A DNA stretch of 32,000 nucleotides from Egibacteraceae bacterium (GTDB lineage Bacteria; Actinomycetota; Nitriliruptoria; Euzebyales; Egibacteraceae): assembly GCA_050743125.1 (NCBI GenBank), contig JBOGEB010000013.1:11287-43286 (forward strand), in the 5' to 3' direction. The notes beneath the pieces are model-generated. The model saw nothing but the letters and a program-made list of their open reading frames with translations. It did not search any database and was not told where the DNA came from. Every line of letters begins with the position of its first letter. The stretch's first letter is position 1. Positions 4,734-18,421 of this stretch are shown in pieces. Made by a program: the position numbers and the translations under genes.

Positions 4734-5777
4734 TCAGATACGGCGACCGCTCTGGTGACGGCCGCCGTACCGCGGGCCTCGGAGGCGGATGCCGTTCGCC
4801 CGGCGCGCGCGCATAAAAACGGCCCCGCCGATACCCGCCAGGGTGAGTATGAGGCCGGGCAGCCAAGGGTTGAACAGGCCCGGCGAGCCGGTGGGCTCCG
4901 TTGCGACGATCGGTGACCGCGCCTCCGGCAGGGGCTCGATCAGGTCCACGGTGGCTGGACCTGATCCGACGGCACCGCTGGCGTGCCCACCCCCTGGCGG
5001 GTCCGGCGGTGCAGACGGGACTGGCGCCCCCGGAGCCTGAGTAGTGGGTCGGGGCGCCGACGGACCTATGGATCTCGGCTTCGCCGCGGGCGCCGCAGGA
5101 GCGATCAACGGAGGCGGCGGTTCTTGTGGCGGCATGGGGATGGGCTTTTCGGTGACGACGTCGGAGTGGTTCGGGCGCGGGCGCGGCCTGGGGTGCGCGT
5201 TCCGTTCCGGACGCGGGTGCAGTCTCGGGCGCGAGTCCGGTTCTGGTCGCGGATGCGGTTTCGGGGCGCGTTCCGATCTCGGGTGCGGGCGCGGGTGCGA
5301 ATCCGGTTCCGGTTGCGGGTTCGGGCGCGAGTCCCGTTCCGGGCGCAAGCCCGGGTCCGGGTCCGGGCGCAAGTTCCGCTCCGGGCGCGATTCCGGTCTC
5401 GGATCTGGGCTCGGGCTCGGGTCCGGAACCAAGCGCGGGCCCGGGTTTGCGTCTGGAACCGGGTGCGGACGCGATCTCGGGCGCGAGTCCTGTTCCTGCT
5501 CCGGGCGCGGACTTGAGTCCGGGCTCGGGTCTGGGCTCGGGTCTGGGCTCGGGTCTGGACTTGAGTCCGGTTCCAGGCTCGGGTCCGAGCGCGAATTCGG
5601 CCTCGGGTCCAGCCAGCAGTACCAGTGGATCGGGTTCGGGCACGACACCTGGTGCTGGATCCCCAGCTCGCCCGCTGTCACGGCAGTCGGCAGGCCGACC
5701 GAGCCGAGCGCCGCCAAGCCCAAGCCGATCCCGACCGCCGCCTTGGAGGGACCGCCCTTGCAACGGAACACCATCAT
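4734..5777 (-). CDS. secreted, C-terminally membrane-anchored proline-rich repetitive protein
   Basis: Start MMVFRCKGG (ATG at 5777) is preceded by GGAAGG. Signal-peptide-like AAVGIGLGLAALGSVGLPTAVTA. About 200 aa of P/D/S/R/E repeats (PDPSPDPSPDPSP, PRPEPDS...). C-terminal TM LPGLILTLAGIGGAVF is followed by RARR. All six frames are open here, so the frame choice rests on the signal and anchor logic. Confidence 0.55.
   Translation of the reverse strand: MMVFRCKGGPSKAAVGIGLGLAALGSVGLPTAVTAGELGIQHQVSCPNPIHWYCWLDPRPNSRSDPSLEPDSSPDPSPDPSPDPSPDSSPRPEQEQDSRPRSRPHPVPDANPGPRLVPDPSPSPDPRPESRPERNLRPDPDPGLRPERDSRPNPQPEPDSHPRPHPRSERAPKPHPRPEPDSRPRLHPRPERNAHPRPRPRPNHSDVVTEKPIPMPPQEPPPPLIAPAAPAAKPRSIGPSAPRPTTQAPGAPVPSAPPDPPGGGHASGAVGSGPATVDLIEPLPEARSPIVATEPTGSPGLFNPWLPGLILTLAGIGGAVFMRARRANGIRLRGPRYGGRHQSGRRI
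5509..5570. repeat. short tandem repeat inside the Pro-rich gene (12-bp unit GGGCTCGGGTCT x3, flanked by GGACTTGAGTCCGG x2)
   Basis: Direct reading of 5509-5570. It encodes the PDPS repeats on the minus strand. Confidence 0.7.
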
Positions 5778-6881
5778 CCTGACCTTCCTGCCATCCGCCA
5801 GTGACTGCTGGTCCGTTTCTCGACCGCCCGATCGCAATCGGGGGCGTCCCCCCGCCCTCACGTTACGACGTTTCCCACAAAATTTCCCGTTGGGCAGGGT
5901 ACGGCTGACCCCGCCGACCCGGTCCACGTCGAGGGGTGCCAAGCGTCTGCCGGCCCAGCGGTCCGCATCGGCCGAGGCAGGGAAGAACTCAACTCGGTAG
6001 GCAGCCGGCAGCGGCTCGCCAGGCGTTCAGCGTGCCGCTCGGCCCGCTGAGACCGGGCAGTGTGGGCTCGGAGGCGGTGATCGCGACGAACCGCCGCATT
6101 GGCTGCAGGGGCTCGGGCTGCTGCCCGCCACGCTTGCGCTGCCCCGCCAGCCCGCCGTTGACTTCCACGAGCAGACCATCACGCTGGTCACACGGTACGC
6201 GACGACCGCCCGGCGGAGCAGTTGGCCGACGCCCGCGCCCACCTCAACGTCCTGGGAGCCGCGCTGCGTGGGCCGAGACAGTTCGGGCAGCGCCGCGGCC
6301 TGCAGGTCGATGCGGCGGAGACCGCTTGCCTGGCCGCCTGCTCGGCCCGCTCCTGCGGATGTCTGGGCGAGACCACCGCGTTCTTCTCGCTCGCGCGGAG
6401 CCTCGCCGATCAGTCGCAGGTGGCGGGGGTGCGCGGCTGCGCGCTGGCGGTCTACTCGGTGCTGCATGCCCGATCATCGGGGACAACGACCCGTTGGCTG
6501 GGCTTCATCGCGAGCACCAGACCCGCAGCGCGCCTTCGCGCTGCCCGACGACGATGGTGATGAGGGGTTCCTCTCCAGCCGTCGGTTCCTCGTCAGCCTC
6601 GCCACGATGGGCGAGGCACAGCTTGACGCCTGGGTGAGCCGTGGCCTCATCCTGCTCGGCATGCGGTGGCAGGCCACGATCCGGAGCCGGCCTGTGTCCA
6701 GGCGCACCACGCGCTCGAGGTGGTGGCGCTGACCCGAGTCCACCACGCCCGCAACGAGATGCGCGGGCAACTGGACCGACACGTCCTGAGTCCGGGAGCT
6801 CACAAGCGCCACGCCTCGTCACCTGAGCCGGCGCGGTGCGGTTCGTCCGCCGGTCTCGGTAGGGAGCTGGAGAATGAAAGA

Positions 6882-7562
6882 ATGAGAGGAATCACTCAGG
6901 CGTTCGGTGCGCGGTTCGACCTCGACGATCTGCTGATCGTGGGCATCGCGTTGACCCTTGCGCTCACCGGCATCTCGTCACTGTTGAGCCCGCTGGGCAA
7001 CATCGCCGTCTCGGCGGTGGTCGTGCTCGCGTGGCTTGCGCTAGCCCGCAGACGCGCGCGGAGACGCCGCGGCCACTGGCGCGAGGCGGACTTCCAGAGC
7101 CCTCGTCGGGGTATCCTCTTCACAGTCGGGCTGGGTGGGGTCAAGGACGGGACCATCGCGGACCTCGTCGTCGATCGCCTGCGTCCCGAGTTCGTCGGCT
7201 TCCTGCTCACAGGCGAGGTCGAGAACCTCGAGCAGATCGAGGAGTTCAAGCGCCGGAAGGGTGTGGTCGTTCACTGCGAGCGGATCGACCCGGGTGACTT
7301 CGAGGGCTGCCGCCGGGCGACGGCCAGGGCACTCGAGTGGCTGCTCGACCAGGAGCTGGAGCGCGACGACCTCGTCGTCGACCTCACCGGGGGCTTGAAG
7401 AACGTCAGCCTCGCGGCCTTCCTCGCCGCCGAGGACTACCAAGTCGAGACGCAATACATTCAGTCCGACTACACCCAAGCCGCCAAACTCGTGCCGGGGA
7501 CACAGCAGCAGGTGCTGCTCACGACGTATCGCGGTGCGCCCGCCTCCACAGCCGCCGGCTGA
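6882..7562 (+). CDS. membrane-anchored CARF-domain protein (2 TM helices + CARF; Cam1-like putative cyclic-oligoadenylate-responsive effector)
   Basis: ATG at 6882 sits in a locally AT-rich initiation region with GGAG 9 nt upstream. TM1 is LLIVGIALTLALTGISSLL and TM2 is IAVSAVVVLAWLALA, followed by RRRARRRR. The Rossmann-like domain has GILFTVGLGG after strand 1 and DLTGGLK, which matches the CARF signature [DN]x[ST]xxx[RK]. It lies directly upstream of the type III cas genes. Confidence 0.6.
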   Translation: MRGITQAFGARFDLDDLLIVGIALTLALTGISSLLSPLGNIAVSAVVVLAWLALARRRARRRRGHWREADFQSPRRGILFTVGLGGVKDGTIADLVVDRLRPEFVGFLLTGEVENLEQIEEFKRRKGVVVHCERIDPGDFEGCRRATARALEWLLDQELERDDLVVDLTGGLKNVSLAAFLAAEDYQVETQYIQSDYTQAAKLVPGTQQQVLLTTYRGAPASTAAG

Positions 7563-7629
7563 CCCCAGACTCGACTCCACGCAGTTCGGCTCAGCTCCGT
7601 GGCGACCACGCCACTTGGATCCGTGCCTG

Positions 7630-7884
7630 CTACAGGTGTTGACTGTCCCCCTCGGGCGCGCGTCTCGACCCACGCTCCTCGATGAGTTCCCGCTGGACAC
7701 GCACCAGCGCTGAGTCCAGCTGGGGCAGGTGTTCGTCGACCGTATTGGCGATAATGTCAGGGTCCCGATCCCAGTACTCGTGGACCACCACGTTGCGAAA
7801 TCCCACAATCCTCCGCCACGGGATCTCTGGAGCGCGGCGGATGACGTCCTCCGAAAGGTGCTTGGCTGCCTCACCAATGCCTGT
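7630..7884 (-). pseudogene. HepT (DUF86/HEPN) toxin gene fragment, 5'-truncated, no start codon
   Basis: Manual minus-strand translation gives TGIGEAAKHLSEDVIRRAPEIPWRRIVGFRNVVVHEYWDRDPDIIANTVDEHLPQLDSALVRVQRELIEERG...QHL*. It contains the HEPN Rx4H motif (RNVVVH) and the IGEAAK box typical of HepT. The frame is closed upstream by TGA (7887..7885). The N-terminal ~45-50 aa and the cognate MNT gene are absent. It is missing from the ORF track. Confidence 0.65.
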
Positions 7885-7893
7885 TCAAGCATT

Positions 7894-9003
7894 CCCGGCG
7901 GCGTCCTCGCGATCGACGGCGACGAGGCTGATCGCCTCGCCGAGCGCCTGAAGGGCCTGCTCGCCGGCACGGTCCTGTTGGGCCGGTCCCGCCGGGCCGG
8001 GTACGGCGGGGACCCGGCGATCGAGTGGGACGCGCTGGGCGACCGCGAGGTCGAGGGGCCACAGGTGGTCCCGCTCGACCGGGATCTCCAGGCGGGCGGG
8101 ACCGTCCGGCTGCTGCTCACCTCGCCGTACCTCGGCCGTCATGCCGACACCGGTCAGCCCGACCCCACCTACCTGACGACCGAGATCGAGCGGCGCCTCG
8201 GCGCGGTCACCGTCGTGCGGCGGCGCTGGGCGTTCACCGAGGCCGGCGGCTACAACCGCGCTTGGGGGCTGCCGCTGCCCCAGCGCGCCGCCCTGGCCGC
8301 CGGATCAGTGCTGCTCCTGCGGGCGGACCACACCGTGCCTGCGGAACCGCTGCAGGACGTCGAGCACAGCGGGCTCGGCGACCGGCGGGTCGACGGCTTC
8401 GGCCGCTGCGTCTTCCTCCAGGCGCCGACCAAGACCGTCACCCTGCACGCCACCCCGAAGGCTCCACCGGCGCCGGCGCCCAACGGCCAGAGCCCGCCGA
8501 CGCTCGTGCGCACGATCGAGCGGCGGATCGCCGAGGCGCGGGTCCGTGACGAGATCGAAGACGTCGCCGCCACGATCGCCCACAGCGCGACAGGGATCCC
8601 GACGTCCAGCCTGATCGGGCGGCTGCGTGTGCCGTTGCGCGGCGACCCAGCGGCCGGGCTCGCCGAGCTCGCCGTATGGGTGGGGTCCAACGACACGACC
8701 GCGCGGCTGCGCCGACCGGCGCTCGACCAGCTCCACCGCTGCCGGCTGACAGAGCCCGACGAGGGGCCGACGACGACCCTTCTCACGTGGCTGCGAGACC
8801 TCTCCCACGACGGCGGGAAGCGACTCAACCGCCTCCTCCGGCTCGACGTCGTCGCCCACAACGCGGCGATCGGAGCAGAGGCCGCGCTCCGCGCAGACGT
8901 GGGGAAGAGCGCCACCGCGCACCGGGCGCTCCTGGTCGATGCGGTCCTGGCCGCGCTCCGCCTCCGGCTGAAGACCACGAGCCAGGAGGGCGTCGATGAC
9001 TGA
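7894..9003 (+). pseudogene. Cas5(Csx10)-Cas11 fusion-like type III subunit, N-terminally truncated
   Basis: The C-terminal ~370 aa of ORF 7729..9003 carries two RAMP glycine-rich loops (LLGRSRRAGYGG; GLGDRRVDGFGRCVF) plus GGYNRAWGLPLP, then a ~170-aa helical Cas11-like tail. The first G-loop lies ~30 aa from the junction, so most of the first RRM is missing. The ORF's first ~55 codons (7729-7893) are antisense to the HepT fragment and are not genuine coding. Confidence 0.6.
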
Positions 9004-10420
9004 CCTCGCCGACACCGGCGGTGCCCGCCGCCTCCGGGCACGTTGGGTGCTCGCCGCTGACCTCGTCCTCCGCACCGCCGCGCACCTCGGCGGGCAGGAC
9101 GAGGGAGCGGCCGACCTCAACGTGATCCGTGACCGGGTGGGCGGCGGGCCGCTCCTGCCAGGGACGTCGCTCGCGGGAGCGCTCCGCGGCCACCTGTGCG
9201 ACCGGCTGGGTGGGTACGCCAGCGCGGAGGCTGACCCGCGTATCGCGACGCTGTTCGGCGCCCGCCGCGCGGAGGACGGCGGCTCGCAGAGCCCGCTGGT
9301 CGTGTTCGACAGCCTCGGCCGCCTGCCTGCGGCTGGCACAGAGATCCGTGACGGGGTGAGCATCGACCACGGCACCGGCACCGCCGCCGAGAACAAGAAG
9401 TTCGACCTCGAGATCCTGCCCGCGGGAACGCGGTTCCCCGCCAGGATCGAGCTGCTGATCGACAACGGCGTCGATGAGCACGAGCTGGTCTCGCTGCTGC
9501 TCGCGGCCCTGCAGGGTCTGGCCGGCGGGGAGATCGCGCTCGGCGCGCGCCGCTCACGGGGACTCGGGCGCGTGGAGACCCGCGTATGGCGGGCCCACCG
9601 ATACGACCTCTCCTCGGCGGACGGGTGGCTGGCCTGGCTGTGCGCCGACCCCGCCGCGCCGATCCCCGACGACGTCGCCGGGCACGAGGATCCCGCTTCA
9701 GCGTGCGACACGGCGTGGCCGGCCCTGCGGCGGAGATCGACGCCGGACCAGCGCGAGCGCGTCACGGTCGTCGCGCGGCTGGAGGTGCAGGGCGCCGTCT
9801 TGGTCCGCAGCCCGGCGGACTCGGCCGACGCACCGGACGTCGCGCACCTCCGCTCGGGCGGCGTGGGTGTCCTGCCCGGCACGAGCCTTGCCGGCGTCCT
9901 GCGGGCTCGGGCGCTGCGGATCCTCGATCTCCTCGGCGCTGACGGACGCCGCGACGGGCTCGTCGACGGGCTGTTCGGGTGGACGCCCCAGGGTCGGGCC
10001 GAGCCGGGAGGCCGGTCGTCGCGCCTGCGGATCGCCGAGAGCGTGATCGACGGCGGCGACCCCGTCCGCCAGACCCGCATCCGCGTCGACCGCGCGACGC
10101 AGGGCGTTGCGCGAGGCGCGCTGTTCGAGGAGGAGCCGCACGCCGGCGGCGAGCTGGACGTGCGCATGGAGCTCCGGAGCCCGAGAGACGGCGAGACCGG
10201 TCTGGTCCTGCTGCTGCTCAAGGATCTCCTCACCGGCGACCTCCCGGTCGGGGGGAGCGCGGCGGTCGGTCGTGGCGTCGTACGCGGGTCGGCGGTCGTG
10301 ACGTTCCCGGACGGCAGCACCGCCCGCCTGGAGCCCCCCGAGGCCGAGCAGCGCGCTCGGCTCGACGCGGAGATCCGCATGCTCGCGGCGGTGGCCGCGC
10401 GACAGGAGGCTGCCCGGTGA
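8996..10420 (+). CDS. cas7: double Cas7 (Csm3/Cmr4-like x2) RAMP backbone subunit
   Basis: 474 aa with two repeats of the Cas7 signature (ADLNVIRDRVGGGPLLPGTSLAGALRGHL; DAPDVAHLRSGGVGVLPGTSLAGVLRARA) and G-rich loops (GARRSRGLGRV; GGSAAVGRGVV). Candidate catalytic Asp residues are retained in both halves. The ATG overlaps the upstream stop by 8 nt. Confidence 0.8.
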   Translation: MTDLADTGGARRLRARWVLAADLVLRTAAHLGGQDEGAADLNVIRDRVGGGPLLPGTSLAGALRGHLCDRLGGYASAEADPRIATLFGARRAEDGGSQSPLVVFDSLGRLPAAGTEIRDGVSIDHGTGTAAENKKFDLEILPAGTRFPARIELLIDNGVDEHELVSLLLAALQGLAGGEIALGARRSRGLGRVETRVWRAHRYDLSSADGWLAWLCADPAAPIPDDVAGHEDPASACDTAWPALRRRSTPDQRERVTVVARLEVQGAVLVRSPADSADAPDVAHLRSGGVGVLPGTSLAGVLRARALRILDLLGADGRRDGLVDGLFGWTPQGRAEPGGRSSRLRIAESVIDGGDPVRQTRIRVDRATQGVARGALFEEEPHAGGELDVRMELRSPRDGETGLVLLLLKDLLTGDLPVGGSAAVGRGVVRGSAVVTFPDGSTARLEPPEAEQRARLDAEIRMLAAVAARQEAAR

Positions 10421-11013
10421 TCACGCTCGAGCGCTGCACTCTGAGCCCGCTGTCACCCGAAGACTGCGGACAGCTTCTCGACTGGGTGCTCGGCGAGGGT
10501 CCGCCGCCGGACGATGCCGGCAATCCCCGCTGGCTGCTCGCCCACTGCGACGACGGGGTCGTCTGGGGCCACCGCCGGACGCCGGACGGCTCGTGGGCGC
10601 TGTCGTCGGCTGCGTTCCCGGCCGTCTCGCCGCCGCTGCGGGCCGGCACGCTCCAAGAGCTGCGCGTGTTCGGCTTCGACGAGGAGCGGCTGGTCTGGCG
10701 GGCCGACGGCGGGCTCGCCGGTCGCCGGCTCCGGGACGCGCCCAACGGGCGAGGCGAGGGGACCGAGCACGTGGAGGACGTCCGCATCGTCCGTGGCGAG
10801 CACGTCCCGGAGGAGCCCCGAAGCGGTTTCACGCTGGTCACCGACAGCGCCGGCTCACGGCACGCTGTGCCAACGGCGTGCGCAGAGGCGGAATTCAAGA
10901 ACGGTCAGCGGGTGCGGCTGGTGCTGCGCCACTACCTGGAGCAGGACTCGAAGACCGGGGCGGTGCGCATCGCCGCCACCCGTCTCGTCGACCTCGAGCT
11001 GGAGCGTGGATGA
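10417..11013 (+). CDS. csx19: Csx19-like (TIGR03984-type) small type III-D subunit
   Basis: GTG at 10417 overlaps the upstream TGA (GTGA), with AGGAGG 7 nt upstream. 198 aa. Its position between the double Cas7 and the large Cas7-insertion gene matches the III-D variant gene order. Family assignment is by recall plus synteny, not by alignment. Confidence 0.55.
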   Translation: MITLERCTLSPLSPEDCGQLLDWVLGEGPPPDDAGNPRWLLAHCDDGVVWGHRRTPDGSWALSSAAFPAVSPPLRAGTLQELRVFGFDEERLVWRADGGLAGRRLRDAPNGRGEGTEHVEDVRIVRGEHVPEEPRSGFTLVTDSAGSRHAVPTACAEAEFKNGQRVRLVLRHYLEQDSKTGAVRIAATRLVDLELERG

Positions 11014-11014
11014 C

Positions 11015-13216
11015 ATGGAGCACCTCCCCCACCACGTCAACCCGCCCGACGGCCGCACGGCGACGGCGCCGTACAACTTCGTGCCGCTCCCCCAGCAGGT
11101 GCTGCTCGCCGAGAGGGTGGTGACCGGCGAGCCGTGGAAGGCGCACGACCGCTGGCTGCCCGGCACCCACAGCGGGTGGATCGACCTCCAGATCGAGACG
11201 CTGACCCCGCTGTTCGTCCGCGGACCGGTCCTGCGCCAGGAAGGCGGGTGGGACAAGCGCGAGGCCCGCCTGCGCCCCGAGCCGTGGACGACGGCCGACG
11301 GCCGGCCGGCCATCCCCGGCTCGAGCCTGCGCGGGATGCTCCGCACCCTCGTCGAGATCCTCGCGTTCGCAACGATCACCCCGGTCAGCGACGCCAAGCC
11401 GTTCTTCCGCACGGTGTCCGCCGACCGGCTCGGCATCGCCTACCGCAACCGGGTCCTCCAGAACGGCAAGAGCAAGCCGGAGGGCGGGTTCCTCCGGCGC
11501 CGAGGAGAGGGTTGGGTAGTGGAGCCCGCAATGGTCCTGCGCGTGCCCCACCGCAAGCATGCCCAGGGCTTCGGTTACCGCCAGCACCCGAGCTACCACC
11601 CCGACTGGGCGCTCCAGCACCAGCAGTGCTGGGTGCAGCGCGACGGCGAGCGGGTGACAGCGATCGAGATCGGCGCGAAGAGGCCGAAGGGCGACGGTTG
11701 GGCCGAGGGCACGCTCGTGCTGACCGGCAGCGCGCCCAACAAGGAGGCCGAGTTCGTGTTCCTCGCGAACCGCGCCGCCAAGCCCGCCGAGGTCCCGGAC
11801 GAGGTCTGGGAGCGGTTCCACGACGACGACCAGATCAGCCAATGGCAGGAGAAGGGCTTCCCAGAGCACGAACCGGCAGGTGGCCGGCGCCGGGCCGCCG
11901 GCCACCTGCGCGACGGCGAGCCGGTGTTCTTCCTGCGGGAGAGCGCTGACCAAGTGCGGTTCCTCGGCCGCGCGCAGATGTTCCGGTTCCCGTACGACCG
12001 CAGCATGGCCGACCTCGTTCCCCCGGCGCTGCGCGGTGCCGAACTCGACGTCGCGGAGGCCGTGTTCGGCCGGGTGCGCAAGGACCGGAACGACCCGCTC
12101 CCGACCGTGAAGGGGCGCGTGTTCGTCGAGGACGCGGTCGGGGTCAGCCATCGGAGGGGGTGGTTCGAGCCTGATCTGGTCCCGCAGATCCTCTCGTCTC
12201 CCAAGCCGACGACGTTCCCTCACTACCTGACACAGGACGGCCGTCAGCCCAAGGAGGCGCTCACGACCTACCTCGCGGGCGACGAGACCACGATCCGCGG
12301 CCACAAGCTCTACTGGCACCGCTGGGGCGAGGACGAGCTGGCCGACGTCTGTGACCGGTCCCAGAGCCCCCGCAGCAGCCAGCACACGGTCATCCGACCG
12401 GTGCGGGCCGGGGTCACGTTCGAGGGACGGGTCCGCTTCGAGAACTTGAGCGACGTCGAGCTGGGCGCGCTCCTCGCGGCGCTGAGGCTCCCGTCCGGCT
12501 GCGCGCACAAGCTCGGCATGGCCAAGCCGCTCGGCCTGGGCAGCGTCAGGATCACCCCCGCGCTCCACCTCGTCGACCGCGCCGCGCGCTACCGCTCGTG
12601 GAGCGACACGGGGCAACGGCCTGACCAGGACGCGGCAGTAGAGGCGCATTGTGTGGACGCATTCGTGGCCGCAGTGCTCGCGCACGCCGGCACGAGCCAG
12701 GAGGCGACGCTGGAGGAGCAAGAGGGCCTCCGGAGGGTTGCCCGGCTCGACGCGCTCTTCACGATGCTGTCCTGGGAGGAACACCCGCCGCGGGAGGCGA
12801 CCGCGTACATGCCCCTGGCCGGCTTCAAGGACCGGAAGGTCCTCCCGACCCCGCACCGCGTAAGCGACCCCAAGCGGGACGAGCCGGACTGGCCCGGGCC
12901 CGCGCCGACGGCGGCGCCCGAGGAGCCCGACCCCGACCGTCCGCCGGCCGCTGCGACTGCCGTCGGCAGCGTCGTTCAGGGAACCGCGCTGGAGGCCAAG
13001 ACGAACAAGGGCGGCTGGGTGTTCGCCTTGCCCGACGGCCAGGAGGGCATCTTCGCCCCGGGCTGCCCTCAACCGTCTGATCTCGCGCCAGGGCGCCAGT
13101 ACAACTTTGTGCGGAAGACCGATCCACCGCGCAGCGAGCGGGCACAGCTGTGGTGGGTCGATCCCGACGCTCCTCCACCAGCGCCAAGGGCCCGGCCCGA
13201 CCGCCGTCGGCGCTAG
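11015..13216 (+). CDS. cas7: large RAMP protein, Cas7 with insertion (TIGR03986-like), with extra C-terminal domain
   Basis: 733 aa. Motifs: APYNFVPLP, GWIDLQIETLTPLFVRGP, RPAIPGSSLRGMLRTLVEILAF, LYWHRWG, and C-terminal G-loop KLGMAKPLGLGSVRIT. A large insertion separates the motifs. The ATG is 2 nt after the upstream stop. Confidence 0.8.
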   Translation: MEHLPHHVNPPDGRTATAPYNFVPLPQQVLLAERVVTGEPWKAHDRWLPGTHSGWIDLQIETLTPLFVRGPVLRQEGGWDKREARLRPEPWTTADGRPAIPGSSLRGMLRTLVEILAFATITPVSDAKPFFRTVSADRLGIAYRNRVLQNGKSKPEGGFLRRRGEGWVVEPAMVLRVPHRKHAQGFGYRQHPSYHPDWALQHQQCWVQRDGERVTAIEIGAKRPKGDGWAEGTLVLTGSAPNKEAEFVFLANRAAKPAEVPDEVWERFHDDDQISQWQEKGFPEHEPAGGRRRAAGHLRDGEPVFFLRESADQVRFLGRAQMFRFPYDRSMADLVPPALRGAELDVAEAVFGRVRKDRNDPLPTVKGRVFVEDAVGVSHRRGWFEPDLVPQILSSPKPTTFPHYLTQDGRQPKEALTTYLAGDETTIRGHKLYWHRWGEDELADVCDRSQSPRSSQHTVIRPVRAGVTFEGRVRFENLSDVELGALLAALRLPSGCAHKLGMAKPLGLGSVRITPALHLVDRAARYRSWSDTGQRPDQDAAVEAHCVDAFVAAVLAHAGTSQEATLEEQEGLRRVARLDALFTMLSWEEHPPREATAYMPLAGFKDRKVLPTPHRVSDPKRDEPDWPGPAPTAAPEEPDPDRPPAAATAVGSVVQGTALEAKTNKGGWVFALPDGQEGIFAPGCPQPSDLAPGRQYNFVRKTDPPRSERAQLWWVDPDAPPPAPRARPDRRRR

Positions 13217-13223
13217 AAGCCCG

Positions 13224-13628
13224 ATGCGTACCGCCAGGTCGCCGCTGGTCTGCAACTTCTCGCACCCGCTGACCCATGCGCACGTCGAGCAGTTGGAGGC
13301 GTTGCTCGGCGTCCCGGTGGACGCGGTGATCGAGCGACCGACCGTCTTCGACCCTGGGACGCCGTTCGCCGAGCAGGCCAGGCGGCTGGTCGACGCCGTC
13401 GGGCTGAGCGTGGCCGAGTGGCAGACCCGCCCGATCGTCGTGCACCTGCCGGGACACAGCGTGATCGCCGCCCTGGTCCTGGCCGAGCTGCACGGGCGCA
13501 CCGGTGGGTTCCCTGCGGTGCTGCGGCTCCGGCGTCTGGAGCCGCTCAACGAGTTCACCGTCGCGGAGCTGATCGACCTGCAGGCCGTGCGCGAGGCCGG
13601 CAGGGGAACCCGCATGGAGAGGAGGTGA
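13224..13628 (+). CDS. small CRISPR-associated accessory protein (possibly Csx15-like; uncertain)
   Basis: 134 aa, MRTARSPLVCNFSHPLTHAHVEQLEALLG... It is packed tightly between the effector genes and cas6 (8 nt after the upstream stop, 3 nt before the cas6 ATG). Alpha/beta-like pattern. The family name is from weak recall only. Confidence 0.4.
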   Translation: MRTARSPLVCNFSHPLTHAHVEQLEALLGVPVDAVIERPTVFDPGTPFAEQARRLVDAVGLSVAEWQTRPIVVHLPGHSVIAALVLAELHGRTGGFPAVLRLRRLEPLNEFTVAELIDLQAVREAGRGTRMERR

Positions 13629-13631
13629 GCG

Positions 13632-14390
13632 ATGCCGGTCGCCTACACGCTCCTGCTCCGAACCGGAGCCGCGGCGCCGGAGCCGACGCATGAGGATCTG
13701 CACCGGCTCGCGTGCCGGCTGGTGGAGCCGCCGGGCAACCCGGCGCATCAGGATCAGCGCAAGCCGTTCACGCTGTGGCCGCTGCAGGTGGCGCCGGAGC
13801 GGGGAGACGAGTGCCAGCTGCGGCTGAACTGGCTGCCGGTCGACGACGGCCTCGGCAGCCACCTGCGGCTGGCGCTGGGCCGGCGGCTGTGGCTGGGGAC
13901 CGCGGAGGTCGTCCCGCTCGACGTCGACCGACAGGGCACGAGCTACCAGACACTGCGTGACCTCCCACCGCTGTGGCAAGCCGACCTGCGGTTCCTCTCC
14001 CCCACCTATTTCTCGCGCAGCGGGAGGGACTACCTGCTGCCCGACCCGGCGCTGATCGTGCGCAGCCTCGTCGTCCGCTGGAACGAGCAGGTCGAGGAGC
14101 GCCCCGCGCTGGCGATCGACGGGGACGTGGCGCGCGAGCTCGGCCGGCGGGTGATCCTCAAGGCCCACGAGCTGTACACCGTGCGGGTGACGGGCGCGGA
14201 CGGACGGCCGCGGACCGGGTTCAAGGGGCAGGCGCGGCTGGGTCTGCGGACCGCCGAGCGACGCTCGGCCGAGGGCGTCGCCTGCGCGCGGCTGCTCGCC
14301 ACGCTGTGCGCCTTCGTGCCCTACTGCGGGTTGGGGGCGCAGACGACGCACGGCCTCGGCGCCGTCGCGGTCTACTCGGCGGATGGGTGA
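13632..14390 (+). CDS. cas6: Cas6 CRISPR RNA endoribonuclease
   Basis: 252 aa. Strong SD (GGAGAGGAGG). C-terminal Cas6 glycine-rich signature YCGLGAQTTHGLGAV. Double-RRM size, and position immediately upstream of the adaptation genes. Confidence 0.8.
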   Translation: MPVAYTLLLRTGAAAPEPTHEDLHRLACRLVEPPGNPAHQDQRKPFTLWPLQVAPERGDECQLRLNWLPVDDGLGSHLRLALGRRLWLGTAEVVPLDVDRQGTSYQTLRDLPPLWQADLRFLSPTYFSRSGRDYLLPDPALIVRSLVVRWNEQVEERPALAIDGDVARELGRRVILKAHELYTVRVTGADGRPRTGFKGQARLGLRTAERRSAEGVACARLLATLCAFVPYCGLGAQTTHGLGAVAVYSADG

Positions 14391-16254
14391 GCTGCTCGAC
14401 CGGGCGGCGCGCCAGCAGGCGCTGCTGGACGCCTAGCACGACCTGCGCGCCGAGGCCCGGCAGGAGGGGCGGCTCGACGCGCACTTCGCGGCGTTCGAGC
14501 ACCAAGCGGCACAGCGGCTGGCCACGATCTCGAGCAGGCTGCGCGAGGGCGCCTGGCAGCCGTCGCCGGTGCGCCGGGTGGCCATCGCGAAGCCGGCGGG
14601 CGGCCAGCGGGTCCTCGGCGTGCCAGTCCTGGAGGACCGCGTGGTCGAGCGCGCCCTGCTCCGTGTCATCGACACGGTGATCGACCCCGAGCTGCTGCCT
14701 TGGTCGTTCGGCTACCGCCGAGGCCTGGGGGTGCAGGATGCGCTGCGCTGCCTGACCGAGGCGCGGGACGAGGGCGCGCCCTGGGTCGCCCGCGGCGACT
14801 TCACCCGCTGCTTCGACGAGGTCCCGCGCGCCCGGCTGCTGGACCGGCTCGCGAAGGTCGTCCCGGACGCCGAGCTGGTCGACCTCGTCCGGGCGCTCGT
14901 GCACCGGCCGGTCGAGGGCGGACCGCGGCACAGCGAGAAGGGGCTGCACCAGGGGTCCGCGATCTCGCCCGTCCTCACGAACCTCTACCTCGACCAGTTC
15001 GACCGGACGATGCTCGACGGCGGCTGGCAGGTGATCCGCTACGGCGACGACTACGCCATCCCGGTCGCCGACCGTGTGGCCGGCGACGCGGCGGTCGGGG
15101 CCGCGCAGCGGGCCGCGGCCGGCCTCGGCCTGGAGCTGAGCCCACAGAAGTGCAGCGTCCGCTCGTTCGACGAGGGCGTGCCCTTCCTCGGCCAGGTCGT
15201 CACCAGCGGCACAGGGCTGCGGACCGAGCAGCGCAGCCATCCGCACGCCACGACCGTGTTCGTGGCCGAGGAGCCGAACGGGCTGCTGCGCAGCCGCGGC
15301 TCCCGTCTGCGGTTGGAGCGCGGCGGCGAGCTGGTGTTCAGCGTCGCCTTCCCGCGCGTCCGCCAGGTCGTGGTGTTCGGGCGGGTCGGGATGACCACTC
15401 CGTTCCTCCAGCAGGTCCTGGTCCGCGGCATCGACGTGGTGCTGCTCAGCGACCACGGCAGGTACATCGGCCGGCTGCAGGGCGCGACGGCGACGAACCC
15501 GTTCGTCCGGCAGCGCCAGTACGAGGCCGAGCGCACGAGCGCGCGCCGGATGGACCTGGCGCAGCGGGTCGTCCGTGGGAAGATCGTCAACCTGCGGGTC
15601 GGGCTGCTGCGAGCGCGCCGACGCGTGGAGCAGCCGTCGTTCACGCGCCGCATCGACCGAATGGGCGAGCTGCTCGAGTCCGTGCCCGGCGCGAGGAGCC
15701 TGGCGTCGCTGATGGGCGTCGAGGGCGCGGCGACGCGCGACTACTTCGCCGGGCTCACCCAGCTCATCGCTGCTGAGTGGGGGTTCACGCACCGACGGCG
15801 CCGGCCACCGTCCGACCCCTTCAACTCCCTGCTCAGCCTCGGCTACACGCTGCTGTTCCAAGAGACGATCGCCGCGTTGGAGGTCGCCGGCCTCGACCCG
15901 TACGTCGGCTTCCTGCACGAGGCGCGGGTCGGCCGGCCGGGCCTGGCGCTCGACCTGATCGAGGAGTTCCGGCCCGTGATCTTCGACTCGGTCGCGCTGC
16001 GGGCGGTGAACACCGGGATGCTGCGCCAAGAGCACTTCACGTGCGACCCCGGCCCACCCGTGTCGTGCCTGCTGACCAACGAGGGGCGGAAGCTCTACCT
16101 GGCCGCCTACGAACGGCGCATGCTCACGCTGATGAGCCATCCCGGCACGCACCGCCGGGTCTCCTATCGTGTGGCGCTCAGCCTGCAGGCCCGCGCGCTC
16201 GCCGACGAGCTGCTCGGCCAAGCCGCCCGCTACGAGCCGCTGGTGTGGAAGTGA
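14383..16254 (+). CDS. cas1: reverse transcriptase-Cas1 fusion, interrupted by in-frame TAG at 14434-14436 (longest clean ORF 14569..16254)
   Basis: ATG at 14383 overlaps the cas6 stop (ATGGGTGA). N-terminus is MGELLDRAARQQALLDA*HDLRAEA.... RT motifs: KPAGGQRVLGVPVLEDRVVERALL, GDFTRCFDEV, GLHQGSAISPVLTNLYL, RYGDDYAI (YxDD), FLGQVV. The Cas1 part carries GVEGAATRDYF, NSLLSLGYTLL, GFLHEARVGRPGLALDLIEEFRP. Confidence 0.85.
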
Positions 16255-16529
16255 TCTACCTCGTCGCCTACGACATCGCCGACGACCGCCGCCGCGAGGA
16301 GATCGCCGCCATCCTCTCCACCTACGGCGCCCGGGTGCAGCTGAGCGTCTTCGAGTGCGAGCTGGCCGACCCCGCCACCGTGGCAACGGTCACGGGCTTG
16401 CTCACCCGCACGATCGAGCCCGCCGAGGACCAGATCCGCCTGTACCCCCTGCCCGCCGGCTCCGTCCGCGGAACCGAGATCATCGGCAACCGCCGCCTCG
16501 AGGAGCGCGCCGACTTCTGGATCGTATGA
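16251..16529 (+). CDS. cas2: Cas2
   Basis: The GTG start overlaps the RT-Cas1 stop (GTGA). 92 aa: VIYLVAYDIADDRRREEIAAILSTYGARVQLSVFECEL...IRLYPL, typical Cas2. Confidence 0.85.
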   Translation: MIYLVAYDIADDRRREEIAAILSTYGARVQLSVFECELADPATVATVTGLLTRTIEPAEDQIRLYPLPAGSVRGTEIIGNRRLEERADFWIV

Positions 16530-16758
16530 CGGCCCCCGGGTCCCTGCGGCTGTCGGATTCACCCCCTTTCGACCGACCGTTGCAGCCCCTCACGCCACGA
16601 CGCCAAACCGGCCCGGTGCGCGCTACGCCATTTCCGCTGGTCAGCGCCCTGCCCGCCCCACACCCGTCCTTCCCTCGGCCCCTCTCCACCCCCCGCCCGC
16701 CCCGGTCCGCGCAACGCCGCGTATACTCCCAGGTCAGCGGCCCCTTTCTGCGGGAAGG

Positions 16759-16869
16759 GTTCCCCCTTAACGCCCGGTGCTCAGGGCATAGAAACGCCGC
16801 CTTCAACATGTGGAGTTGAGGAAAGCGATACCGTTCCGCCTTAGGCCTCGATGTTTCATGTGATTATGC
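16759..16869 (+). CRISPR. vestigial CRISPR array: one 37-nt repeat, one 37-nt spacer, one degenerate terminal repeat
   Basis: R1 (16759-16795) is GTTCCCCCTTAACGCCCGGTGCTCAGGGCATAGAAAC, with a GCCC/GGGC hairpin followed by an 8-nt ATAGAAAC tail. R2 starts exactly 74 nt later (16833) as GTTCCGCCTTAGGCCTCGATGTTTCAT...; 10 of the first 11 nt are identical, then it degenerates. The spacer (16796-16832) is ~54% GC versus ~70% locally. The array begins 230 nt downstream of cas2 on the same strand. There are only two copies, so this is tentative. Confidence 0.4.
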
Positions 16870-16919
16870 GGGGCGGGTCTGAGGGGCCTGTGGGGCTGTC
16901 GATGAGAGCGCAGGAGACG

Positions 16920-16942
16920 AAAAAACCGGCCGTGGCCGGGTT
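16920..16942 (-). terminator. weak intrinsic-terminator-like hairpin with T6 tail (minus strand)
   Basis: The minus strand reads AACCCGGCCACGGCCGGTTTTTT. A T6 run is rare at this GC content. It lies ~110 nt downstream of the transposase-fragment stop. The stem is short (4-6 bp). Confidence 0.3.
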
Positions 16943-17054
16943 GAGGCAGCAGTCGACGGATGTTCGGATGGTGTTGGGGCAGGCTGAGGCAGCGGCAGGG
17001 CCGCTGGCAGATGTTGTGAGAGGATTGTCGGACGGCGAGGGGAGATCAGGCCCG

Positions 17055-17509
17055 TCAGGTGGCCGGTAGGGGCAGTGCGTCCAACCGTTCGAACGCCGCT
17101 GCCAGCTGGGCCGCCCACGGCCAGTCATGCTGGATTCTCAGCTTCAGCCGCCGGCCCGAGCGGACGATCCGCGCTGGGGCGTGCAGCACCTTGCAGCGCA
17201 GGGTGGCGGGCTCGGCCAGCCGCAGCCGACCGTCGAACGTCAACACCTGCGTCCACACCATGAGCTCCTGAGCCGTCATCACCGGCTGCAGCCAGACGGC
17301 GTCGCGTTCGAACGTCTCGCACGGCAGGTTGCGCGCCCCGGTGTCACAAGGCGTGCGCGGATGCGGTCCTCGACGTGCGCGAGGCCGCGATGGCGCACGT
17401 CCCGGCCGGCGAGATCCGCGTCGGGCTGGTCGGTGAGGAAGGCGGTGAACCGTTTCCCGTCGACGTCGAACAGGGTCTGCTGCGCCCCGGGATGCAGCGC
17501 CGTGAAGCC
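17055..17509 (-). mobile_element. IS1380-family transposase gene fragment (C-terminal ~150 aa only, frameshifted)
   Basis: Two minus frames together read HPGAQQTLFDVDGKRFTAFLTDQPDADLAGRDVRHRGLAHVEDRIR / DTGARNLPCETFERDAVWLQPVMTAQELMVWTQVLTFDGRLRLAEPATLRCKVLHAPARIVRSGRRLKLRIQHDWPWAAQLAAAFERL. This matches the conserved IS1380 C-terminus as I recall it. The N-terminal ~300 aa are absent. Confidence 0.7.
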
Positions 17510-18100
17510 GCGCGACGATCTCGCGGAACCGGTCCAGGACACGGCCGCAGCCCAGATCTTTGGTGTTGGCCACGATGGCCTCGAAACGCAGGACGTGCTC
17601 GCCTTTGGTGTACGCCTTGGAGGGTCAGGTTGCCGAAGCGGGACCTTGAACACCGTCAGGTCGTAACAAGGTGTGGCGACCACGGCCTCGACGCGCCAGG
17701 TGCTCGTGCGGTTGCGGTGAGGACGGCTCTTGGCGCCGAACAGGGTCCGTATCTTCGCCCACGTCCAGCCTGGAGCGGGTGCGGTCTACCAGCTGCCCGA
17801 AGACCCGCTGGATCTGGGCGCCGGAGGAGAACAGCAGATTGCGGCTGTATTCGGCCTGATAAACCGAGTAGGAGCAGCGAAAGCCGCTGCGCTGCTGATC
17901 TGCCAGGTCCAAACCGAAGCACAGACACGCCGAGTAGATCCGGGCGCTCGCAGACCTGGCTTGCCCGCCCTACTGTCGCCTGCTGCGACAAGGTGTCTGC
18001 GATCTAAAGCCAGGCCTGCGGGGTCGGCTGTACGAGTGAAGCAGTTGCCTTCTTTGACGAAGCCGATCCCCGCCTTGCGCGCTGTTAGCCGCCAGGGTTT
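17505..18100 (-). pseudogene. second degraded transposase-like/conserved actinobacterial ORF, spread over three frames
   Basis: Minus-strand pieces in successive frames read GIGFVKEGNCFTRTADPAGL..., YSVYQAEYSRNLLFSSGAQIQRVFGQLVDRTRSRLDV, IRTLFGAKSRP, YDLTVFKV, RFGNLTL and KAYTKGEHVLRFEAIVANTKDLGCGRVLDRFREIVARL. The series ends abruptly where the IS1380 fragment begins (~17505-17512). I did not recognise the family with confidence. Confidence 0.5.
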
Positions 18101-18421
18101 TTGACCTTGGTGTGGGCCGATTCGGCCGGGGTTGTTGTCCTCTACGCAGGGTGACGGACGGTTTGCTGTCGGGCGCGGGGACGGAAAGGATGTCGCGGTC
18201 CTGACATGAGTCGGCCCTCGCGACGCCTGTCAGCGTCCGAGGGCCTTGGGCTGATCGTGGCAGCCGTTGCTGATCGTATTCGCTGTCGAGGTTGGGGTCA
18301 GCGATGACGTTGTGAGACGGCGGCCGGTCCGCGGTCGAAGAGCTGCCGATCGCTCGGGACCTCATCCACAGATCGACTGGGATACTTGCGCCCACACCAC
18401 CCGATCAGGCATACTACGAAC

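Follow-up and report, generated by a model that had tools for sequence, protein, structure and literature searches.

The DNA considered here is a window of 32,000 nucleotides (positions 11,287 to 43,286 of contig JBOGEB010000013.1; G+C ~71%) from an uncultured Egibacteraceae bacterium (GCA_050743125.1). Within it, the remains of a gene for a HepT toxin, read on the minus strand, abut the remains of csx10 (cas5-cas11) of a type III-D CRISPR-Cas locus, read on the plus strand. As an original prediction from the sequence had it, both genes lack their 5' parts and their broken ends face each other; HepT proves to be without 35 codons and Csx10 without its first 194. The whole is best explained, and very probably so, by one deletion that fused the hepT stump to the csx10 stump, with Cas10 gone from the locus.

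The Two Gene Remnants

The minus-strand translation of 7633-7884 reads TGIGEAAKHLSEDVIRRAPEIPWRRIVGFRNVVVHEYWDRDPDIIANTVDEHLPQLDSALVRVQRELIEERGSRRAPEGDSQHL up to its stop (TGIGEAAKHL...FRNVVVHEYW...SQHL). Its assignment to the C-terminal part of a HepT/DUF86 toxin, made in the original prediction, has held up well: the remnant matches Pfam HepT-like PF01934 (DUF86) at E 9.9e-18, with 64.4 bits against a cut-off of 23.5, across profile positions 37-118 of 120. The NCBIfam HepT_toxin model falls short of its 60-bit cut-off at 38 bits, the window having kept just the C-terminal part. The catalytic Rx4-6H motif is intact (R-NVVV-H inside FRNVVVHEYW), and the remnant is 85-88% identical to full-length HepT genes with an MNT partner. 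The nearest full-length HepT, the 126-aa P0071, shares 85% amino acid identity with it and has an MNT gene directly upstream; an exact look-up of P0070 returned no contig.

HepT codons 1-35 are gone from the window through the large deletion, and a second, smaller loss lies within what remains. A stretch of 22 nt (codons 44-50 plus one base), present in the related loci L088 and L004, is deleted between 7879 and 7880; window 7880-7901, CCTGTTCAAGCATTCCCGGCGG, is a HepT stretch that sits 22 nt further on in those two loci. This internal deletion shifts the HepT frame and thereby places the TGA at 7885-7887 in frame ahead of the remnant, where it had been noted together with the want of a start codon. 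Both features are seen, the TGA now having a secondary origin, and no ATG, GTG or TTG occurs in the remnant frame before GTG 7806, the first canonical in-frame start. No MNT gene was found in the window; one adjoins the full-length homologues in L004, L088 and L089. The window copy of HepT is a pseudogene.

On the plus strand, an open reading frame (ORF) can be called from GTG 7729 (424 aa, to 9003) or from GTG 7858 (381 aa), and from either start its N-terminus is chimeric, read antisense to HepT. The longer ORF matches Csx10 only from residue 57 (nucleotide 7897), its first 56 codons being antisense to HepT, and the G+C content at third codon positions is 0.65 in codons 1-55 versus 0.92 for the remaining gene. 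The ORF callable from 7729 is thus an accidental chimera, as had been foreseen, with the correction that the supposed ATG start is a GTG in the window (it is ATG in the sister assembly L085). In the alignment, the join to the Csx10 family falls at GGVLAIDG, corresponding to residue 195 of the full-length homologue P0002 (559 aa), and a glycine-rich loop, GRSRRAGYGG, follows 28 residues past the join. This agrees with the predicted entry into a RAMP protein shortly before its first such loop; the ten-base gap once thought to separate the two genes does not exist, as HepT DNA reaches 7901.

Among 69 homologues of the ORF, most of them annotated as Csx10, lengths are ~480-590 aa except for one near-identical 381-aa copy, and 66 of the 69 combine such a length with a conserved N-terminus. 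They align only to the last 87% of the window ORF as query, and a search for homologues that include its first 55 residues returned none but near-identical sister assemblies with the same scar. The N-terminal RAMP half, with the motifs DPNS..PGSA.RGA, VRYLNAYP and HQQRDR, is absent from the window ORF and from P0001; the other aligned homologues keep it, save P0030, the called product of which begins ~66 residues in. Profile searches for Csx10/Cas5 tell the same story, in that only C-terminal parts of two models were matched: TIGR02674 (Csx10) at E 3e-17, with 62.8 bits against a cut-off of 177.3 and only positions 316-389 of 402, and Pfam Cmr3 only at positions 224-365 of 367.

An AlphaFold2 model of P0002 (pLDDT, the predicted local distance difference test, of 80) matches chain 8s9t_A, the Cas7-Cas5-Cas11 protein of Synechocystis III-Dv, at E 1.4e-24, and then Cmr3 and Csm4 chains; the Csx10 profile also matches 8s9t_A. 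Given this match and an all-helical C-terminal part in the model (residues 396-558, the last ~160), "Cas5-Cas11" is a fair label for Csx10. The break lies in a predicted beta-hairpin of the RAMP core, at residues 178-201.

The Orthologous Locus with Cas10

P0002 was found on the Egibacteraceae contig L001, from a metagenome-assembled genome (MAG; GCA_050743665.1), and on the Logan contig L002. The gene order in L001 is Cam1-like (227 aa), p369, Cas10 (544 aa), p211, Csx10 (559 aa), Cas7-2x, Csx19 and a TIGR03986 RAMP protein, followed by Csx15, Cas6, RT-Cas1, Cas2 and DUF222. Two collinear blastn blocks (window 5984-7552 to L001 128-1707 at 91%, window 7896-16794 to L001 6183-15082 at 85%), together with a DUF222 flank shared by both, establish that the sites are orthologous. 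The 4,475 bp of L001 1708-6182 are missing from the window. Alignment to relatives, proposed as a check in the original prediction, therefore finds in L001 and L002, between the same flanks, a can2/card1-like gene, cas10, cas7 and a full csx10 at the position of the scar.

The identity of the lost genes follows from comparison with known structures and profiles. The 544-aa protein of L001 is a Cas10 (8s9t_C at E 1.3e-20; Pfam palm2 with 30.3 bits, the cut-off being 27). The p369 protein is Can2/Card1-like, with matches to DUF1887 structures at E 6e-20, to Can2 at E 6e-4 and weakly to the Card1 Pfam families, and p211 (211 aa) gives a weak Cas7 match. Searching all 32 kb by tblastn with p369, L001 Cas10, p211 and Csx10 residues 1-194 gave no match, and neither the Pfam nor the NCBIfam scan of the window detected a Cas10. 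Loss of cas10 and MNT had been anticipated; the Can2/Card1-like nuclease and a separate cas7 were lost as well.

The order p369-cas10-p211-csx10-cas7x2-csx19-RAMP recurs in 54-71 of 80 GTDB loci from many phyla. These loci came from a Csx10 scan, include no close relative and were used solely for conserved gene order; they gave no HepT match with the query used. The conserved order corresponds to the III-D1/III-Dv operon (PMC11026444).

The Junction

At the junction the window can be read base by base as a joining of two parental contexts. L088 has ...CATCCC-CGGCGG-AAACGC, L001 has ...GCGGCT-CGGCGG-CGTCCTCG, and the window has ...CATTCC-CGGCGG-CGTCCTCG, the two remnants overlapping in the 6-nt CGGCGG. 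In 200,000 simulated joins of both parental stretches, a microhomology of at least 6 nt arose at a frequency of only ~0.003, and on this ground the mechanism that fits best is a deletion mediated by microhomology, through slippage or end joining, with the proviso that the parents are represented by proxies 83-91% identical to the window. No breakpoint lies at the left edge of the scar, the window being collinear with L088 across it.

The junction is identical, base for base, in three assemblies: the window, L003 (SRR27067764) and L085 (GCA_975253835.1). L085 is 99.5% identical to the window across 17.5 kb, and L003 99.5% across 11.9 kb, with single-nucleotide polymorphisms (SNPs) and indels elsewhere than at the junction. 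Such agreement among assemblies that differ elsewhere excludes, for practical purposes, a misassembly in which unrelated contigs were joined at a short repeat. The MAG origin of the sequences and the clustering of SNPs between sister assemblies, which hints at strain mixing, speak for such an artefact; against it, the 6-nt overlap is also far under the k-mer length of any assembler, and synteny with L001, at one and the same place in the chromosome, holds on either side. We regard its probability as negligible.

The carriers of the scar are so alike, differing by 0.5% or less, that the deletion must be recent. No difference separates them over 8596-17562, and those found elsewhere are confined to clustered patches, so selection after the deletion is not measurable. 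Between L003 and the window, 24 of 55 differences fall within 560 bp of the csx10 remnant (8038-8595), mostly at codon positions 1 and 2, with zero differences in the following 3.3 kb; between L085 and the window they cluster at 5500-7400 and 8551-8595. These clusters suggest recombination patches or a mixed-strain consensus. Hypermutation of the diversity-generating-retroelement type, considered for the csx10 cluster, was rejected, as the substitutions show no specificity for adenine.

hepT-mnt as a Resident of the Site

The other parent of the junction is represented by L088, a Logan contig found via its Cam1-like protein, in which the Cam1-like gene is followed by convergent full-length hepT and mnt. 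Window 6896-7879 is collinear with it through the Cam1-like gene, the intergenic region and HepT. L089 (212-kb JGI contig Ga0081538_10000003) likewise has a full mnt-hepT pair at the orthologous place in its chromosome, with the relative orientation unchanged, flanked by homologues of window 6002-6818 and of 16148-16793 (the cas1 3' end, cas2 and a downstream element). Here, too, alignment to relatives bears out what had been proposed: in L088 and L089 the site is occupied by full hepT and mnt, oriented as predicted from the window. In L004, L088 and L089 the MNT gene lies directly upstream of hepT and overlaps it. From the collinearity with L088 and the full pair at the orthologous site of L089, hepT-mnt is taken to be resident at this site in three lineages.

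It is against this evidence that one must judge the notion that the HepT piece came in as filler DNA, a copy of sequence from another part of the genome captured by a double-strand break as the cas10 region was lost, and never was a resident neighbor of the operon. Actinobacteria possess nonhomologous end joining, which is able to capture fragments, and in L001 and L002 the stretch from the Cam1-like gene to the operon is free of HepT and MNT, the observation that first suggested such capture. The idea was rejected after L088 and L089: collinearity of window and L088 extends from the Cam1-like gene over the intergenic region and into HepT as far as 7879, L088 itself carries full hepT and mnt, and in L089 mnt-hepT lies at the orthologous site beside cas1'/cas2 in the same orientation. 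We give filler DNA very little credence.

Both proxies have peculiarities of their own. After mnt, L088 contains a second, partial copy of the Cam1-like gene 5' end (1945-2117), and its hepT has a 1-nt frameshift near codon 88; either may reflect rearrangement or assembly error. L089 retains at 8715-11555, besides mnt-hepT, only the cas1 3' end and cas2, with no Cam1-like gene, and is an independent, larger erosion of the same locus; a sequence like window 6312-6660 occurs twice in it, flanking this block. In a Thermoleophilia MAG (L028 11625-12351), a related type III-D operon has its csx10 and cas7-2x separated by an MNT (PF01909) and HEPN (PF05168) pair, so that HEPN-MNT modules recur inside type III-D loci.

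One Deletion or Several

These observations suggest the following history. The ancestor, an Egibacteraceae-like actinobacterium, would have carried a rightward cam1-like gene, then leftward hepT with mnt upstream of it, and then a rightward operon of can2/card1-like, cas10, cas7, csx10 (cas5-cas11), cas7-2x, csx19, cas7-insertion, csx15, cas6, RT-cas1 and cas2. One deletion of at least ~4.3 kb, ending in the shared CGGCGG at hepT codon 36 and csx10 codons 194-196, probably by replication slippage or microhomology-mediated end joining, would then have taken the hepT 5' end, mnt, can2/card1-like, cas10, cas7 and the N-terminal RAMP half of csx10, to judge from collinearity with relatives. A later 22-nt deletion, seen directly, frameshifted the HepT stump. 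From the action of type VII toxin-antitoxin (TA) pairs (PMC13000451, PMC4621449) one would expect a deletion that removes the MNT antitoxin to be viable only if HepT is disabled too, which would explain why the left break lies inside hepT and not beyond it.

Several points weigh against this history. The ancestor is pieced together from three proxies, whose identity to the window is 77-91%, and the microhomology, too, is read from proxies and not from the true parent. No HepT or MNT was found in L001, the closest intact relative, or in L002; L088 is rearranged beyond mnt; and the effector genes were lost from L089 in a different way. The effector ORFs downstream of the scar are all still open, which would fit a recent event and is no proof of lost function. 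Finally, one step is not distinguishable from several successive deletions.

Successive events might, for example, have removed cas10 with the csx10 5' end and hepT/mnt separately, with later trimming. The locus is evidently unstable, having suffered the second deletion of 22 nt in the HepT stump and holding an insertion sequence (IS) remnant downstream, and the three proxies (the larger and different erosion in L089, the absence of hepT-mnt from L001, the rearrangement of L088) would each be at home in a stepwise account. On the other hand, there is one junction only, with a clean 6-nt microhomology and no leftover sequence of the missing interval, and loss of mnt with hepT intact should be toxic, which favors a single step removing both. 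We consider successive events unlikely. The original prediction of a single deletion that took MNT and the HepT 5' end on one side, and cas10 and the csx10 5' part on the other, thus finds its geometry in the relatives, with the single step itself unproven; one deletion would be the most parsimonious reading of an ancestral arrangement that is seen complete in no single genome.

Consequences for the Locus

In biological terms, the event is a recent, ordinary pseudogenization of a type III-D locus and the adjoining toxin-antitoxin pair. The scar is a tidy example of defense-locus decay, well documented, not novel and involving no new mechanism. Without Cas10 there is no signal synthesis, and the Cam1-like receptor would be orphaned for want of its second messenger; both receptors of the cyclic-oligoadenylate type would thus be affected, the Can2/Card1-like one by deletion and the Cam1-like one by orphaning. 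The HepT remnant, with its first helices and start codon missing, would be inert. Csx19 lies between Cas5 and Cas10 in the III-Dv structure, and the complex depends on it for assembly or stability (PMC11026444). By analogy, effector assembly should be impossible without the Cas5 half, which holds the 5' handle of the CRISPR RNA and contacts Cas10 and Csx19.

One might nonetheless ask whether the shortened Csx10 still works together with the other genes left, as a Cas10-independent type III-D variant and thus a functional innovation. The genes cas7-2x, csx19, cas7-insertion, csx15, cas6 and cas2 are open and intact, the arrangement occurs in three assemblies, and III-D is the presumed origin of type III-E, which has no Cas10 (PMC11026444). 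Yet a truncation of this kind is seen in none of the 66 other Csx10 homologues, the RAMP core is cut within a beta-hairpin, the N-terminus consists of antisense HepT whose third-position composition is non-coding, RT-Cas1 has an early stop, and the window holds no CRISPR array; with carriers differing by 0.5% or less, persistence is uninformative on selection. Such an innovation strikes us as highly improbable. Somewhat less so, and still a long shot, is that the Cas10-less remnant (chimeric Cas5'-Cas11, Cas7-2x, Csx19, Cas7-insertion and Cas6) is still used, either by itself as a minimal module that binds or cuts RNA, or to supply parts to a second type III system elsewhere in the genome. If this were true, the remnant would capture in nature a stage on the way from III-D to effectors that, like III-E, do without Cas10. 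In a milder variant of this idea, MNT-HepT would be an addiction module guarding the operon, and the scar would record the sole viable escape, with the toxin truncated in the same event.

Returning to the scar as the product of a single recent deletion, it matters chiefly for how the sequence is annotated and interpreted. Public MAG records list the two pseudogene stumps as a 424-aa "hypothetical protein" and an 82-aa "HepT-like ribonuclease domain-containing protein", and the genome should not be counted as holding a working type III-D system. The scar also illustrates how a defense island erodes, by a microhomology deletion in which antitoxin and toxin function are lost together and a Cam1-like receptor is orphaned, and related lineages show independent erosions at the same site.

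Remaining Genes and Neighboring Sequence

The features of the locus are collected in Table 1. The Cam1-like protein upstream of the scar matches PDB Cam1 8t64_A at E 3.2e-9 (residues 67-203) and the CARF model TIGR02710 at E 1.7e-12, and is 86% identical to its L001 orthologue.

Table 1. The scar and the genes around it (window coordinates)
Feature	Position	Strand	Description
HepT remnant, in-frame part	7630..7879	-	codons 51-126 of full-length toxin, with Rx4H (RNVVVH); stop codon 7630-7632
HepT remnant, frameshifted part	7880..7901	-	codons 36-43 (PPGMLEQA); from alignment to L088 and three-frame translation
Deletion junction CGGCGG	7896..7901		in both parental contexts: HepT codons P36-P37, csx10 codons L194-G196
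Csx10 (Cas5-Cas11) remnant	7897..9003	+	equivalent to residues 195-559; 92% identity to P0002 residues 195-558
Cam1-like gene, intact	6882..7562	+	226 aa; N-terminal transmembrane segment and CARF domain
Double Cas7 (cas7-2x type), intact ORF	8996..10420	+	474 aa; Pfam RAMPs 6.5e-36, two stretches; 90% to L001
Csx19, intact ORF	10417..11013	+	198 aa; 85% to L001 Csx19, which matches TIGR03984 at 8.6e-23
Cas7 with insertion domain, intact ORF	11015..13216	+	733 aa; TIGR03986 RAMP E 4e-117; gene called in L085
Csx15	13224-13628	+	61% to L001 protein matching NF040560 at 9.5e-39
Cas6	13632-14390	+	Pfam PF10040, 3.9e-16
RT-Cas1, then Cas2	14383..16529 (Cas2 16245-16529)	+	Pfam RVT_1 and Cas1; tblastn

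The adaptation module is damaged as well. RT-Cas1 has an in-frame stop at 14434-14436 (codon 18, W in L001), and its callable ORF restarts at GTG 14569, without ~60 N-terminal residues; L085 shares the stop, since it has no differences from the window past 8595. In L001, 1-nt deletions and a 50-nt deletion at 12389-14170 split cas6 and RT-cas1 into pieces, which is either independent decay of the adaptation module or the result of MAG indel errors. TRF and a direct-repeat search detected no CRISPR array in the window, where an array elsewhere in the genome is possible; none was found in L001, and none follows cas2 in either locus. The C-terminal two-thirds of the Cas7-insertion RAMP and Csx15 (window 11400-13500) are only 58-74% identical to L001, as against ~90-97% for the flanking cas genes, which looks like a recombinational swap of this module.

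A conserved element of 100-250 bp stands in inverted orientation at each end of the L001 cas operon (1907-2075 and 14850-15076). The window has the right-hand copy only (16530-16800), the left one having sat in the deleted interval. The element has no Rfam match and could be a leader remnant or the end of a mobile element; the Rfam scan of the window and L001 as a whole gave no match. Downstream of cas2, a frameshifted IS1380-family (DDE_Tnp_1_4) transposase remnant lies on the minus strand at 17055-18100, and window 16795-18299 has no counterpart in L001, where ~640 bp of different sequence are found. Upstream of the Cam1-like gene, tandem repeats with periods of 12-66 nt occupy 5168-5609, in a G+C-rich region; the sister assemblies call a minus-strand gene there (~345 aa, ~4734-5777), for which no family match was found. 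A promoter and terminator scan of 6500-8300 gave no result.

Comparison with Known Systems

Among characterized systems, the locus is most readily compared with type III-Dv/III-D1 of Synechocystis sp. PCC 6803 (PDB 8s9t-8s9x; PMC11026444), whose order from cas10 to cas6 is the same in L001, together with adaptation genes. Unlike in III-Dv, Cas7 is here a separate 211-aa protein (in L001) and not fused to Cas5-Cas11, and the locus has an RT-Cas1 and, instead of Csm6/Csx1, Can2/Card1-like and Cam1-like effectors; the window itself lacks cas10, cas7, half of cas5 and an array. With Cam1, the membrane-depolarizing CARF effector (PDB 8t64), window 6882-7562 shares a predicted N-terminal transmembrane segment and CARF domain; unlike Cam1, it is without the Cas10 that would make its ligand.

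The toxin remnant bears the DUF86/HepT signature of the HepT/MntA type VII pairs (HEPN-MNT; PMC4621449, PMC13000451), namely Rx4H and the following Tyr (RNVVVHEY). In contrast to those pairs, the window copy has lost its first 35 codons, its start codon and its MNT partner, and carries the frameshifting 22-nt deletion. A further parallel is with the CreTA "guardians" of CRISPR-Cas, in which the antitoxin of an RNA toxin-antitoxin pair needs Cascade (review PMC12737573). Unlike CreTA, MNT-HepT is tied to the type III-D effector here by physical adjacency only; like CreTA, it is a TA pair beside an effector operon, and loss of the operon went together with inactivation of the toxin.

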